A stretch of DNA of 64,000 nt from an uncultured Acidobacteriota bacterium (GCA_963730485.1 CAVSRY010000011.1:47059-111058); one strand, 5' to 3'. Positions 1,133 to 47,096 are shown, counted from the stretch's first letter. The notes: generated by a model not told the origin, from the letters alone. Translations and numbers: made by a program.

Positions 1133-2130
1133 TTGCACATGCGTTCCACGACGACGATCACCCGGTTCGTTGCCGCGCTCTGCTGGCGCTCGCGTCGGCG
1201 TTACTGCCGTCCATGGCGTCGGCACAGGGCGCACGCTACGCGATGCTGGTTCAGGGCGCCTCGGGTGAGGACCAGTACGCCGTCCAGCATCGTCGCTGGG
1301 TGGACTCGCTTGCGAAGGTCTTCCGCGATCGGTTCAAGTACGACGCGTCGCACCTCATCGTGCTCACCGAAAAGCCGGGCGCCGGCGAGGAGCGCGCGGA
1401 CGCCGCGACCGTGCGGGCGGCGCTCGCGCGCCTCAGCAAGTCCATGACGGCGTCCGACCAGCTCGTGATCGTCCTGATCGGACACGGCAGCGGGCAGGGG
1501 AGCGACCTCAAGTTCAATCTCATGGGGCCCGACCTGAGCGTGGCGGAGTGGGCGACGGCGCTCACGTCCGTGCCGGGCCGCATCGCGGTCGTCAACACGG
1601 CGAGCGCGAGTTTTCCGTTCATCGGCGCGTTGGCCGGACCCGGCCGCGTCATCATCACGGCCACGAACACGACGTCTCAGCGCTACCACACCGTCTTTCC
1701 TGAGGGTTTTGTGGAGGCCTTGTCGTCGGACGCGGCGGACGTGGACAAGAACTCGCGCATCTCACTGCTCGAGGCGTTCACCTACGCCACCCGGCTCGTC
1801 GCGCAGCACTACGAGCGCGCCGGCACGATGGCCACCGAAACCGCGGCGATCGACGACGATGGCGACGGCAAGCCCCGGACAGGACCCGCCACCGGACCGG
1901 ACGGCAACGTCGCGGCGCTGACCTACCTCGATTCAGCGGTCGCGGCGACCTCCACCGATCCCGAAATGCAGAAGCTTCTCGTCAGGCAGCAGGCGCTCAC
2001 CGAGCAGGTCGACGACCTTCGCCGCCGGCAGGGATCGATGCCCGCAGCGCAATACGAGAGCGAGCTGGAGAAGCTGCTCACGGAGCTGGCGGTCGTGTCG
2101 CGAGACATACGACTAAAAAGTTCGAAGTGA
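1133..2130 (+). pseudogene. secreted clan-CD (C13/caspase-like) fold protein, frame-disrupted in the signal peptide
   Basis: The signal-like N-terminus is split over two frames (MRSTTTITRFVAAL then LLALASALLPSMASAQG, shift near 1178). LVIVLIGHGSG is a His-Gly motif. AVVNTASASF lies where clan-CD enzymes carry the catalytic Cys. The tail is coiled-coil-like. Confidence 0.35.
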
Positions 2131-2180
2131 GAAGTCAGAAGTCCATTTTCTTCTCACGAGACTTCGAACTTCGAAACTTC
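2120..2180. repeat. heptad-periodic inverted array (GAAGTSA / TSACTTC family) at a convergent gene junction
   Basis: Left arm gttcgaa|gtgagaa|gtcagaa, loop cattt, right arm ttcttct|cacgaga|cttcgaa|cttcgaa. Pairing is imperfect. Confidence 0.7.
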
Positions 2181-2853
2181 CGGCGAAGCCGGCTAAGCTC
2201 CCCACCACTCGACACGCTGCCGTTCCCGTCGTCTGGCAATCGAACGGCCAGCATTCCTGCCACGGCGCCGCCGACGTACGGCCAGAACGACGGCCGAGTC
2301 CTCGCAAGGGCACGTCGAGCCGGCCGAGCCGCCGAGCATCTGAAGCGCGAACCATGCCGCGGCGAGGAGTACGGCGGGAAGCTCGATGGCGTCGAGAATC
2401 GACCGCGCGGGCACGAGCACGAGCACGCGCGACCGCGGGAACATCACGAAGTACGCGCCCATGAGCGCCCGCGATGGCGCCGCCCGCGCCAGCGAGCGGC
2501 ACGCTCGACGCCGGCGTCGCCCAGAGCGACGCGGCCCACGCGGCATAGCCGGACAGAAGATACAGCGCGAGGAAACGGCCGTGGCCGAGCTGGTCCTCGA
2601 CGTTGTCACCGAAAATCCACAGGACGATGATGTTGAGCGCGAGGTGCACGCTGTTCTCGTGAAGGAACAGCGAGGTGGTCGCCGTTGTCCAGGATGCTTC
2701 GACAGGGACGAACGCGAAGCGCTGCGTCCAGACGTACGCGTCCGCCGCCGGCAGTGACAACGCGTACAGGAACGCGAGCACATTCGCCGCGATCAGCGCG
2801 ACCGTCATCCACGGCGTCGTGCGGGACGGGATGACGTCGGCAACGGGAAACAT
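2135..2853 (-). pseudogene. rhomboid family intramembrane serine protease, frame-disrupted
   Basis: HENSVHLALNIIVLWIFG and GAGGAIAG/MGAYFVMFP rhomboid motifs with multiple TM segments. The reading path uses all three minus frames (shifts near 2460 and 2290). Confidence 0.7.
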
Positions 2854-2879
2854 GACCGCCGTGGCAGTATACGTGGCGT

Positions 2880-2955
2880 GGGTTTTGGGACTTGGGTCTT
2901 GAGTCTTGGGGCTTGGGTCGTGTCTCAAGCCTCAAGCCTCAAGCCAAGCTCTTGA
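2880..2955. repeat. heptad-periodic inverted array (GGGNCTT / CTCAAGC) in a divergent intergenic region
   Basis: gggtttt|gggactt|gggtctt|gagtctt|ggggctt|gggtc, spacer gtgt, then ctcaagc x3. Confidence 0.75.
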
Positions 2956-2973
2956 TAGTCTGAGATGCGCTAA

Positions 2974-44878: not shown

Positions 44879-44887
44879 TGGGGGGTT

Positions 44888-46978
44888 ATGCATAAGCCGG
44901 TCAAGTACGTCGAGAAGGGGCTCACCATCGCGGCCAAGGGCGCCTGGGTCGTCTTCGACGCGTTGAACAGCATCAAGCAGAACGAGTCGTTCACGCCGAA
45001 GTGGTCCGAGAAGCCGCTCCTGAAGTCGTGGCAGAAGGTGAAGCCGCCGCTCGGCTGGCCGCGCGAGACCGACTCGCTCTGTCCGGTCTGCGTGCGCGAG
45101 GCCCGTCAGGAAATCCTCGACGGCAAGCGCGACTACAAGGTGCTGCTCACCGAGAAGATCGGCGAGATCAAGGCGACCATCATCGAGCGCGACGGCAAGA
45201 TCATGATGGTGAAGGATTGCCCGATTCACGGCCACTTCGAGGACGTGATGGCGATCGACTCGGCGTTCTTCCGCCACCTCGAGGAGTCGTTCCCCGGCTC
45301 CGACATGCGCGCGCACAACGACGAGAAGCTGCACAACCACGGCTCGTCGACGATCAAGTACGGCCGCGGATCGGTGCTCACGGTGGACCTGACCAACCGC
45401 TGCAACATGATGTGCGACCCGTGCTTCATGGACGCGAACCAGGTCGGGTTCGTGCACGAGCTGGCCTGGGAAGAGATCAAGACGCTGCTCGACAACGCCA
45501 TCACGATCAAGCCGCGGCGCCAGATGTCGGTGCAGTTCTCGGGCGGCGAGCCGACGCTCTCGCCGTACTTCCTCGACGCCGTGCGCTACTCGCGCAAGGT
45601 CGGCTACAACTCGGTGCAGGCGGCGACCAACGGCATCGAGTTCGCGAAGAGCCCCGAGTTCGCCAAGGCGGCGGCCGAGGCGGGTCTGCGATATGCCTAC
45701 CTGCAGTTCGACGGCATCGGCAACGCGGCCAACTCGCATCGTCTCGTCGGCAACCTCTTCGACGTCAAGCTCCGGGCCATCGAGAACCTGTGGCGCGCGG
45801 GCGTGGACATCGTGCCGGTGACGACCATCGTCAACGGCGTGAACAACGAGCAGGTCGGCCGCATCATTCAGTTCGCGCTCGACAACCCGAAGAAGATCTC
45901 GTTCCTCTCGTTCCAGCCGGTGTCGTTCACGGGCCGCGACGAGGAGATCACCGACGAGCGCCGGCACGCGCAGCGCTACACGCTGTCGCACCTCGCGCAC
46001 GACGTGAAGAACCAGACGGGTCTCGGCGAGCCGGTGCGCGACTGGTTCCCGATTTCGTTCATGGGCACGTTCACCGACTGGGCCGACCTCGTGCACGGGC
46101 CCGCGTCTGACTGGGGCCAGCTCAACTGCGGATGCCACCCGAACTGCGGCATCGGCATGGCCGTCATGGTGGACAAGGAAACGAAGGAAGCCGTGCCCGT
46201 GACGGCGTTCCTGAAGGGCGAGCAGCTCGCGAAGGACATCGCGAAGGTCAACGACGCGGCGCGCGGCAGGAAGATGTCGGTCGTCGGCATGGCGCTGGCC
46301 CTGATGAAGAACTACGACCCGTTCAAGTCGCCGACGCACTTCAAGATGGCCGACCTCCTGAAGAAGTTCGACAAGACCTTCGGGGCGACCAAGGGCGCGC
46401 GCACCGGCAAGTACGGCAGGGTCGAAGGTGACCGGACGGACAAGGACATCGAGATCCGCCGCGGCGATCGCTGGAACTTCCTCTTCATCGCGGGGATGTG
46501 GTTCCAGGATCTCTTCAACTACGACTTCCGCCGCACCGAGCGGTGCATCATCCCGTATGCGACGCAGGAGGGCGAGATCAGCTTCTGCGCCTACAACACG
46601 GGCATCGGCTGGCGGAACATCATCGAGAAGATGCACATGACGGCGACGCTCACCAAGTGGTACGACGAGCACGGCCGTCACGAGATCTTCGCCGGTGGCA
46701 AGAAGGTGGCGCTCGATACGACCCAGCACAGCCTCAAGCTCGACACCGAGGCGGTGAACAAGGGCATCCAGCACGACCTCGACGACAAGGGCATCGCCAA
46801 GACGGCGCGCGAAGAGAAGCTGCGCGCGCGCAAGGTCGAGCAGGAGAACAAGCGCATGGCCGAGCTGTACCGCCAGGTCGTGCTGAAGGAAGCGAAGCCT
46901 GAGGTTGCAACCGGCCTCCAGATTCAGGGGCTCGGCGGCGCCAAGAAGGCCGACGACAAGGAAACCGTCACGCACTAA
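44888..46978 (+). CDS. radical SAM enzyme, Tes / GDGT-MAS-like (candidate membrane-spanning lipid synthase)
   Basis: Uninterrupted 696-aa ORF. N-terminal CPVC..CPIHG knuckles, VDLTNRCNMMCDPCF (CX3CX2C), QFSGGEPT, TNG, YLQFDG. C-terminal Cys-rich region NCGCHPNCG..ERCIIPYATQEGEISFCAYNTG. Confidence 0.7.
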   Translation: MHKPVKYVEKGLTIAAKGAWVVFDALNSIKQNESFTPKWSEKPLLKSWQKVKPPLGWPRETDSLCPVCVREARQEILDGKRDYKVLLTEKIGEIKATIIERDGKIMMVKDCPIHGHFEDVMAIDSAFFRHLEESFPGSDMRAHNDEKLHNHGSSTIKYGRGSVLTVDLTNRCNMMCDPCFMDANQVGFVHELAWEEIKTLLDNAITIKPRRQMSVQFSGGEPTLSPYFLDAVRYSRKVGYNSVQAATNGIEFAKSPEFAKAAAEAGLRYAYLQFDGIGNAANSHRLVGNLFDVKLRAIENLWRAGVDIVPVTTIVNGVNNEQVGRIIQFALDNPKKISFLSFQPVSFTGRDEEITDERRHAQRYTLSHLAHDVKNQTGLGEPVRDWFPISFMGTFTDWADLVHGPASDWGQLNCGCHPNCGIGMAVMVDKETKEAVPVTAFLKGEQLAKDIAKVNDAARGRKMSVVGMALALMKNYDPFKSPTHFKMADLLKKFDKTFGATKGARTGKYGRVEGDRTDKDIEIRRGDRWNFLFIAGMWFQDLFNYDFRRTERCIIPYATQEGEISFCAYNTGIGWRNIIEKMHMTATLTKWYDEHGRHEIFAGGKKVALDTTQHSLKLDTEAVNKGIQHDLDDKGIAKTAREEKLRARKVEQENKRMAELYRQVVLKEAKPEVATGLQIQGLGGAKKADDKETVTH

Positions 46979-47000
46979 CGTGACAAGCTGCGGGATGGCC

Positions 47001-47046
47001 GACGGGCCGGATGAGGCAACTCATCCGGCCCGTTGTGTTTTTGGGG
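47001..47046 (+). terminator. canonical intrinsic terminator after the radical SAM gene
   Basis: gacgggccggatgag gcaa ctcatccggcccgt, followed by tgtgtttttgg. Confidence 0.85.
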
Positions 47047-47060
47047 CTGCTGCGCTCTCT

Positions 47061-47096
47061 GGTTCAACGTTCCGGGTTAAGGGTTCCGGGTTCTGG
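47061..47096. repeat. single-arm heptamer array (GGTTCNR)
   Basis: ggttcaa|cgttccg|ggttaag|ggttccg|ggttctg. Confidence 0.55.

Follow-up and report, generated by a model that had tools for sequence, protein, structure and literature searches.

The 64 kb of DNA analysed here, from an uncultured soil Acidobacteriota bacterium (GCA_963730485.1, CAVSRY010000011.1:47059-111058; the whole stretch is referred to as the window, G+C 66%), carries short tandem arrays at 21 loci between 2.1 and 47.1 kb, which repeat with a 7-nt step or, in a minority, with a step of 8-9 nt. The arrays are long simple sequence repeats (SSRs), and about two thirds of them are convergent inverted pairs which can extrude hairpins of 50-160 nt. 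They are defined by period and symmetry and not by sequence, as a first reading of the window from sequence alone (the original prediction) had proposed: 155 distinct canonical heptamers occur among 304 arrays counted over 161 acidobacterial loci, and neither flanks nor loops are conserved. The arrays are most likely by-products of a mutational process rather than sequence-defined functional elements, and with slightly better than even confidence we ascribe them to a lineage-wide process of unit-step slippage and inverted copying, the products of which would persist where selection allows. A process of this kind had also been favoured in the original prediction, and it is judged the best explanation because strains sharing 98.6% identity differ by exact 21- and 63-nt array indels and by the presence of a hairpin.

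Periodicity and inverted symmetry in the window

Runs at a lag of 7 nt (at least 11 of 14 matches) numbered 32 in the window against 5.0±2.0 in 20 dinucleotide shuffles, whilst lags of 5, 8, 10 and 11 stood at chance level and lags of 6, 9 and 12 carried the codon signal. Tandem Repeats Finder (TRF) returned ~40 period-7 rows between 2124 and 47093, and under a three-unit criterion period 7 accounts for 13 arrays of the window and period 8 for one, with none at periods 5, 9, 10 or 11. The 21 loci (Table 1) were counted after five GC-rich coding false positives had been dropped; two of them have a period of 8-9 and the rest a period of 7. Inverted pairs make up 14 of the 21, with significant folding as single-stranded DNA (ssDNA; z -2.8 to -9.3 against 200 shuffles, of which at most two equalled the observed fold), and RNA folding agrees. 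The other seven (7494, 9084, 27310, 36223, 36527, 37001 and 47069) are unpaired.

These counts bear out much of the original prediction, namely more than 20 loci, an excess of lag-7 periodicity over shuffled controls, units of 8-9 nt at 32115 and 32345 (found by TRF at 32111 and 32347) and drift from one unit to another at 36224-36310 (AAAAGGC x5 followed by GAACGGG x5 at 36223-36312). The proposed design of an array facing its reverse-complement partner stood for the 14 folding loci and failed for the seven unpaired ones. Units specific to each locus, also proposed, were refuted: four families together cover 19 of the 21 loci (GGGNCTT-type at eight, GGGAACG-type at five, GAAGTSA-type at three and GGCAAAG-type at two), and families are characteristic of the genome.

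The two arms of a pair resemble each other more closely than adjacent units do, with an arm complementarity of 0.78-1.0 against a tandem lag-7 identity of 0.34-0.82, and they share irregularities in mirrored order (5889, 41448 and 33458). At 5889 an identical irregular 5-nt unit stands at the mirrored position in each arm, at 41448 the 26-nt arms are exact mirror copies, and at 33458 the outer 32 nt of the 77-nt arms mirror each other exactly. It follows that inverted duplication, and not independent growth, relates the two arms.

Arrays in relatives and inside dnaE2 and imuB

Relatives were sampled as 80 genome loci around a radical-SAM gene (among them metagenome-assembled genomes (MAGs) from GTDB, L005-L077) and 80 metagenome loci around dnaE2 (JGI/ENA contigs, L081-L160). 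The 696-aa radical-SAM-like protein of the window (44888-46978) shares 77-88% identity with proteins encoded by Acidobacteriota MAGs, the top match coming from a Vicinamibacterales MAG and none on record being identical; scans of genomes and metagenomes found no assembly of the same species, the best matches reaching 88% and 83% amino-acid identity. Arrays are patchy across Acidobacteriota, some loci of Vicinamibacterales, Blastocatellia and Terriglobia carrying them and many lacking them. The dnaE2 locus set contains 257 strict arrays in 793 kb, over which the period spectrum is 198 at period 7, 32 at 9, 20 at 8, 8 at 6 and none at 5. An inverted partner accompanies 31-57% of arrays (31% within 150 nt) versus 1.5% of random segments. 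GGGATTC and GGGATCC are common units among the relatives, and a run of three G or three C (G3/C3) occurs in 44% of the 304 arrays versus 32% expected.

The recurrence of similar arrays in independent MAGs and Illumina metagenome contigs places the phenomenon beyond a single assembly. An assembly or sequencing artefact, to which the many frameshifted genes of the window might point as signs of an error-prone assembly, has next to no probability, as the identical architecture appears across assemblies made independently in different projects and by different technologies, where the arrays lie in intact open reading frames (ORFs).

Using the intact, array-free DnaE2 of L003 (1030 aa) as a ruler, arrays in DnaE2 cluster at four sites (A-D; L003 residues ~60-80, 550, 810-840 and 870-890), with insert lengths of 18-318 nt, yet dnaE2 forms one uninterrupted ORF in 49 of 50 full-length copies. 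All 33 imuB ORFs are likewise intact, with arrays near ImuB residues ~120-150 and 360-390. Array density per 10 kb is 5.6 in dnaE2 and 3.0 in imuB versus 1.0 in other long ORFs, mostly at ORF edges, and 3.2 in the mixed remainder. The conserved DnaE2 core is nearly free of arrays (3 of 246 windows along it, 1.2%); arrays stand in the imuB-dnaE2 spacer at 16 out of 63 loci and in the 3' flank of dnaE2 at 7 out of 52. A stop triplet on the sense strand occurs in 28% of arrays inside dnaE2 versus 54% outside, and folding within dnaE2 favours the antisense over the sense strand (106 vs 45, p=1e-8), which is probably a by-product of stop-triplet avoidance, as this makes the sense strand C-rich. Selection for an mRNA hairpin was rejected on the same observation. 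Our literature search found no report of tandem or heptanucleotide repeats in connection with dnaE2 or imuB, nor any on heptamer repeats in Acidobacteria.

Two loci show further arrangements. At DnaE2 site B of L081 (2933-3090) an AACTTCG array sits in the loop of a GGCCGAA/TTCGGCC hairpin, so arrays can nest. L106 contains two full dnaE2 copies in inverted orientation, 874-4080 (+) and 6195-9401 (-). Each shares 67% identity with the DnaE2 of L003, and their arrays (2544-2572 and 7703-7731) mirror one another; the contig may be a fold-back chimera or a real large palindrome.

Turnover between strains and orthologues

Evidence for turnover between strains was restricted to locus pairs at least 98.6% identical. 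Between L082 and L083 (98.6% identical) the only indels longer than 2 nt are three array differences: the two differ at DnaE2 site A by an indel of 21 nt (3 units); L083 imuB carries an array insert of 63 nt (9 x 7) with the short direct repeat CAG at its ends; and a hairpin of 83 nt within the imuB-dnaE2 spacer, present in L083, is absent from L082, where one or two units of one arm are retained. The lengths of the two coding indels are divisible by 21, which is what slippage by 7 nt would be expected to leave once filtered by the reading frame. L081 and L082 (87% identity) exhibit different array architectures at one and the same DnaE2 site. Pooled over 11 locus pairs, 15 of 141 indels were multiples of 7, in a set where global alignments at 90% identity or below forced non-homologous DNA together. 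L086 and L087, whose loci are 90% identical, are separated by a 38-nt indel of the 9-nt unit GTACGTCAG x4.

Orthologous spacers compared for gain, loss and unit turnover, a comparison which the original prediction had put forward, lack arrays or carry other units in the nearest genomes. The hairpin upstream of the radical-SAM gene is absent in 79 of 80 orthologues, and L021 has an unrelated TTCAGAG array there. The 41448 hairpin is without counterpart in L001, the closest available genome, in which the convergent gene ends adjoin and the upstream neighbour gene differs.

Proposed slippage and inverted copying, and the evidence weighed against them

In the reading we favour, replication slippage by whole units builds, resizes and replaces arrays, as the differences between relatives show, and intrastrand template switching (fold-back copying) may then duplicate an array in inverted orientation. 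Purifying selection spares the products only in unconstrained sequence, which in the loci compared means spacers up to the stop codons and disordered protein linkers; within linkers only stop-free inserts whose length is a multiple of 3 persist, as the dnaE2 and imuB genes of relatives show. A few unit families are favoured in each genome.

Several observations weigh against this account. Arrays lying >400 nt apart on one contig have an identical unit in 13.2% of cases versus 0.83% between contigs, a 16-fold difference, which in-situ slippage alone would not predict and which implies either that units are copied ectopically from locus to locus or that each genome prefers certain sequences. A G-rich arm stands 5' in 13 of 14 window pairs (all but 18844-18932) and likewise in 47 of 60 pairs from relatives (p=1e-5), and this strand-symmetric, G-rich-first polarity is unaccounted for by simple slippage or fold-back. 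Arrays placed 0-6 nt from stop codons, as in Xanthomonas, could fit a function in the 3' untranslated region instead. The excess of arrays in DnaE2 and ImuB over other ORFs may be attributable to four tolerant linkers, and slippage and template switching are both read from sequence comparisons. Neither slippage nor inverted copying accounts for the 7-nt step, for the G-first polarity or for units being shared within a genome. The arrays might instead reflect a dedicated process making 7-nt-step, G-first repeats, common to Acidobacteriota, Xanthomonas and cyanobacteria and co-opted here, at the four fixed sites of DnaE2 and two or three of ImuB, as mutasome slippage switches or expression brakes, which we hold to be an improbable, speculative reading.

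The sharing of units within a genome bears equally on non-autonomous mobile or copy-paste elements, in which MITEs (miniature inverted-repeat transposable elements), elements like REPINs (hairpins formed by two repetitive extragenic palindromic (REP) sequences) or gene conversion would disperse unit families that later grow by slippage. Such copying would account for the 16-fold enrichment, for four families covering nearly all window loci, for the CAG repeat flanking the insert in L083 imuB and for the presence or absence of arrays between 98.6% identical strains. An alignment of seven GGGNCTT-type loci, however, showed only the unit to be shared, without common ends, loops or length; one array drifts between units internally (36223-36312), and the indels are whole-unit multiples. 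General Pfam scans of ~50 window ORFs, which included no search aimed at transposases, returned no transposase or Y1-transposase domain. We therefore consider copy-paste dispersal improbable as well. MITE or REP elements as such were rejected, as the seven aligned loci share no ends, body or 20-40 nt palindrome, and the CAG direct repeat is too short for a target-site duplication.

The mutagenesis cassette of the window

Six of the 21 array loci lie in the SOS-mutagenesis cassette of the window. Hairpins at 32111, 32345 and 33086 sit between recognisable ImuB segments, the array at 36223-36312 falls between positions equivalent to L003 DnaE2 residues 823 and 826 and splits the HHH_6 domain, and the array at 36527-36570 is an in-frame insert in the linker preceding the OB fold. 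Non-periodic inserts take the place of clean arrays at sites A (33850-33925) and B (35370-35436): a duplicated CACGCGGGGTCAGTCCCA, remnants of AAGCCTC/AAGCCCC and a TAA in frame at site A, and a hairpin, AACCGGGTGTC...GACACCCGGTT, at site B. Both inserts look like degraded or replaced arrays. The sole sigma-70-like promoter match in 30-50 kb (31181-31209, +) lies between the hairpin at 31100-31168 and the imuA start (31242).

The reading frame breaks at five places, all of them arrays or inserts (32111, 32345, site A at ~33880, site B at ~35390 and site C at 36240-36318). As 7 equals 1 modulo 3, one unit gained or lost could toggle the SOS mutasome, and the arrays in imuB and dnaE2 would then be contingency switches, with the intergenic arrays as neutral background. 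The five breaks would fit this, as would the occupation of four fixed DnaE2 sites and at least two ImuB sites in dozens of lineages and the density in dnaE2 relative to other ORFs. We nevertheless regard such switches as very doubtful. Relatives are in frame in both genes (49 of 50 and 33 of 33), the strain-level coding indels seen are of 21 and 63 nt only and preserve the frame, and simultaneous breaks at five sites do not make a reversible switch. Frameshifts affect many unrelated genes of the window, and dnaE2 also breaks near 35700, away from any array, so sequencing indels or general decay account for the breaks too.

Split or truncated genes in the window are the rhomboid gene (2193-2928), a minus-strand gene (3247-3734), an M28 peptidase (6588-7473), the 5'-3' exonuclease (17918-18550), a histidine kinase (27293-29081), dnaE2 (33629-36995), UDP-glucose dehydrogenase (41536-42899) and an amidase (54669-55793); intact long ORFs include 44888-46978 and 3908-5530. 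Split genes in such numbers suggest that the assembly is prone to indels, as from long reads, or else that pseudogenes are widespread. Because so many genes are frameshifted, gene callers based on G+C at third codon positions (GC3) or on codon usage were unreliable here, and gene neighbours were assigned by Pfam and tblastn.

Array loci, gene junctions and possible functions

Table 1 Array loci of the window, with the cassette that carries six of them
Position	Array	Context	Folding z
2116-2182	Pair, GAAGTSA / TSACTTC	Overlaps stop of + gene 1213-2130; convergent with rhomboid gene (-)	-2.8
2876-2950	Pair, GGGNCTT x5 / AAGCCTC x3	Divergent: rhomboid gene (-), Zn-ribbon gene (+, ATG 2974)	-4.9
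3749-3858	Pair, GGCTCAR / YTGAGCC-AAGCCCT	Divergent: - gene start 3734, FHA-GAF-SpoIIE gene start 3908	-3.8
5889-6022	Pair, ATTGGTN x7 / NACCAAT x7	Convergent; ends at DUF2585 stop (6022)	-9.3
7494-7532	Unpaired, GCCCTAA x5	Fills spacer from citrate synthase stop (7533, -) to M28 peptidase start (7473)	+0.4
9084-9135	GGGTCTT x4.3, weak 11-nt partner only	Spacer between PhoU stop (9153, -) and YacG	-0.5
15733-15862	Pair, GGGCTCA x4 / CTAAGCC x8	Co-directional: CHAD gene, histidine-phosphatase gene (+)	-5.1
18844-18932	Pair, CGTTCCC / GGGAACG	Between DUF2304 gene and 5'-3' exonuclease gene (both -)	-3.6
27310-27330	Minimal, GAGCCCT x3; weakest member	Final codons of histidine-kinase ORF	
31100-31168	Pair, GGGNCTT / AAGCCTC	Divergent: MFS transporter (-), imuA (+)	-3.1
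31242-36995 (+)		SOS-mutagenesis cassette: imuA 31242-31958, imuB ~31940-33448, dnaE2 33629-36995	
32111-32216	Pair, 8-nt unit, CGAAGGTC / CCTCGGAC	Inside imuB; frame changes across	-5.8
32345-32452	Pair, 8-9 nt units, GAGTTCGAG / CTCGAACYC	imuB linker after 'LPVGWLG'; frame changes across	-6.4
33086-33186	Pair, GGGCARA x4 / TYTGCCC x4	imuB C-terminal linker; arrays here in relatives too	-8.2
33458-33616	159-nt hairpin, TGATTTG/AAATTTG-type units, weak periodicity	Fills imuB-dnaE2 spacer	-8.7
36223-36312	Unpaired double array, AAAAGGC x5, GAACGGG x5	dnaE2 linker site C; frame changes across	
36527-36570	Unpaired, GCCCCAA x6	dnaE2 linker site D; in-frame reading PQAPSPKPQAPSP	
37001-37074	Unpaired, CGTTCCC arrays	6 nt past dnaE2 stop (36995)	+1.3
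40305-40410	Pair, GGGGAAC/GAGGAAC x8 / CGTTCCT x2-3	3 nt past BON-gene stop, upstream of SET-domain gene	-5.9
41448-41536	Pair, GAAGTGA/GAAGCCA	Hydrolase stop (41458) to UDP-glucose dehydrogenase stop (41536)	-9.3
44772-44880	Pair, GAAGTNA / TNACTTC	Ends 8 nt before radical-SAM-like gene start (44888)	-4.0
47069-47096	Unpaired, GGGTTCN x3.6	Downstream of canonical terminator 47000-47035	

Arrays occupy every type of junction and also coding regions, as had been proposed. Hairpins stand at convergent (2116, 5889 and 41448) and divergent junctions (2876, 3749 and 31100; three of ~15 intergenic loci, with gene models uncertain owing to frameshifts), ~9 loci lie between co-directional genes, and six are inside coding sequence (imuB, dnaE2 and the kinase tail). 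Many arrays begin 0-6 nt from a stop codon, those abutting stops doing so at 7533, 6022, 36995, 40302 and 41458/41536; as the arrays touch stop codons, the spacers are completely filled by them.

A terminator scan of 30-50 kb made 19 calls against 12.6±3.4 expected, among them 47000-47035, which confirms the separate textbook terminator proposed at 47001, and called none of the arrays, so that intrinsic termination was rejected as their role. The canonical terminator is the only one within the scanned 20 kb, and the arrays lack T-tails. This, together with their presence at divergent junctions and inside intact ORFs of relatives, supports the earlier view that a simple terminator role is insufficient. 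In L001 (12098-12245) the terminator after the radical-SAM-like gene is conserved; CGGGTTC-type heptamers lie upstream of it there and downstream of it in the window. A known structured RNA was also rejected, with 0 matches to Rfam 15 at the gathering score on both strands of the 64 kb, and the window contains no tRNA or transfer-messenger RNA.

The arrays might nonetheless be functional structures of a REP or G-quadruplex (G4) type, as hairpins or as G4s from GGGNNNN units in spacers or 3' untranslated regions, acting as stabilisers of mRNA 3' ends, tail-less terminators, insulators or binding sites of a nucleoid or structure-specific protein (the last an alternative in the original prediction), in which structure is selected whilst sequence drifts. 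Fourteen significant hairpins and the many arrays starting just past a stop codon would suit such a role, and with a single canonical terminator in the scanned 20 kb some further device for 3' ends might be required. The polarity, strand-symmetric and with the G-rich arm first, fits an RNA-level rule on whichever strand is transcribed, and the excess of G3/C3 units over expectation points the same way, as do the analogous arrays of Xanthomonas, for which transcription and in-vitro G4 formation are reported (PMC4692102). We consider functional structures unlikely all the same: one third of the loci are unpaired, three hairpins lie between divergent starts, and others are carried within dnaE2 and imuB ORFs that are intact, a setting in which termination would do harm and in which the sense strand folds worse than the antisense. 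Orthologous spacers do not conserve the arrays, and arm mismatches fall mostly at the variable unit position without compensation. G4 formation is impossible for most units and was rejected as a general explanation, as most units are without G3; in the window, G3/C3 units occur at ~12 of 21 loci and the remaining loci cannot form G4s.

The last part of the window (47100-64000) is free of arrays despite several spacers; G+C is reduced over part of its length (0.61 at 50-52 kb), and its ORFs are lower in GC3. It might be recently acquired DNA or simply more tightly packed.

Comparison with known heptanucleotide repeats

Heptanucleotide repeats have been an oddity of some bacterial genomes for decades, among them the short tandemly repeated repetitive (STRR) sequences of cyanobacteria and the arrays of Xanthomonas, and we know of no accepted mechanism or function for them. 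STRR sequences comprise several genome-specific families of tandem heptamers in the intergenic DNA of heterocystous cyanobacteria, e.g. CCCCAGT, TTGGTCA and CAACAGT. The arrays described here resemble them in forming multiple tandem heptamer families dispersed between genes, and differ in phylum (Acidobacteriota, Vicinamibacterales-like), in their units and in pairing, as inverted pairing is rare in Nostoc. Heptanucleotides are also cited from Calothrix PCC7601, whilst Nostoc is described as having 'only a few paired repeats' (PMC4692102).

The original prediction also knew of no described family of paired inverted heptamer arrays with locus-specific units, a view not borne out given the convergent inverted heptamer pairs of Xanthomonas (PMC4692102) and known heptanucleotide long SSRs. 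Rehm et al. (2015) reported GGGAATC arrays of 2-26 units, 186 in X. campestris and 183 in X. axonopodis, ~90% of them intergenic and on average 28 nt from the upstream ORF, which vary between close species (PMC4692102). Each genome has 70-75 array pairs, 'always' in convergent orientation, and divergent junctions are under-represented (PMC4692102). The likeness to our arrays is close: the pairs are convergent, a G-rich array on the plus strand followed by one on the minus strand corresponds to the G-rich 5' arm seen here in 13 of 14 pairs, and tandem heptamers of variable length and sequence lie, in many cases, near the stop of the upstream ORF. In Xanthomonas, however, one G3 unit dominates (GGGAATC / GGGANTN) with a preference for four units that follows a G4 logic, whereas the units of the window are different (GGGNCTT, GGGAACG, GAAGTSA, GGCAAAG, ATTGGTN and others), with four families in 64 kb and 155 units among relatives, more than half of them without G3. 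Our arrays are also longer, with hairpins of up to 159 nt, divergent junctions appear not to be avoided, and in-frame arrays are abundant in imuB and dnaE2.

In published summaries of a survey of long SSRs in bacteria with large genomes (Mrazek 2007 per PMC4679880 and PMC4692102), heptanucleotides are the commonest long class in many bacteria and the preferred unit in many phyla that are unrelated, with polymerase slippage and a contact of ~7 nt proposed as their basis. Our arrays share with this class (LSSR 5-11) a tandem iteration beyond chance, here with a period preference of 7 >> 9 > 8, and polymorphism in unit number between close strains, as in L082/L083; as summarised in those papers, the survey includes no Acidobacteriota of this clade and no inverted pairing, polarity or in-frame linkers. 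Single heptamers are known from the marine Beggiatoaceae, where TAACTGA direct repeats lie upstream of start codons (MacGregor 2015, PMC4679880), and from Geobacter metallireducens, with 49 copies of a GGACCGG x4 element between and within genes (PMC2700814). Both resemble our arrays in having 2-6 units and in being abundant in spacers, and differ in that each has a single fixed unit and is mostly direct, with one inverted case reported.

REP sequences, together with bacterial interspersed mosaic elements (BIMEs) and REPINs, are likewise plentiful extragenic palindromes in spacers, often right after stops; a REP is, however, a conserved sequence of 20-40 nt mobilised by a REP-associated tyrosine transposase (RAYT), whereas here conservation is limited to the unit and each arm has an internal period. 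Intrastrand template switching (quasipalindrome-templated mutation) is known from point-like events, and SSR contingency loci from SSRs of 1-5 nt in pathogens. Between them they supply both of the proposed steps, the copying of one arm from the other and frame-shifting unit slippage, and the arrays in imuB and dnaE2, here and in relatives, resemble contingency loci in that the unit is not a multiple of 3; neither is known as a genome-wide source of hairpin arrays with a 7-nt step. What is new relative to known heptamer repeats is the number of unit families, the long hairpins and the systematic in-frame occupation of linkers in two mutasome genes.

Implications

As a practical matter, the arrays will mislead gene callers, terminator predictors and screens for non-coding RNA in Acidobacteriota. 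The clade offers a clean natural experiment, in which many units with one 7-nt step allow dependence on period to be separated from dependence on sequence, and the strand-symmetric polarity of the pairs is a constraint which any mechanism must meet. Arrays inside dnaE2 and imuB, in-frame and stop-free, provide a built-in ruler for turnover and selection. If contingency switching operated at these sites, it would add a new layer of control over stress-induced mutagenesis, and if a dedicated repeat-making process had been co-opted there, the error-prone polymerase would itself be under hypermutable control. If instead the arrays arise by slippage and inverted copying, as we favour, a strong, lineage-specific mutational bias would be shaping both the intergenic DNA and the protein linkers of these bacteria.

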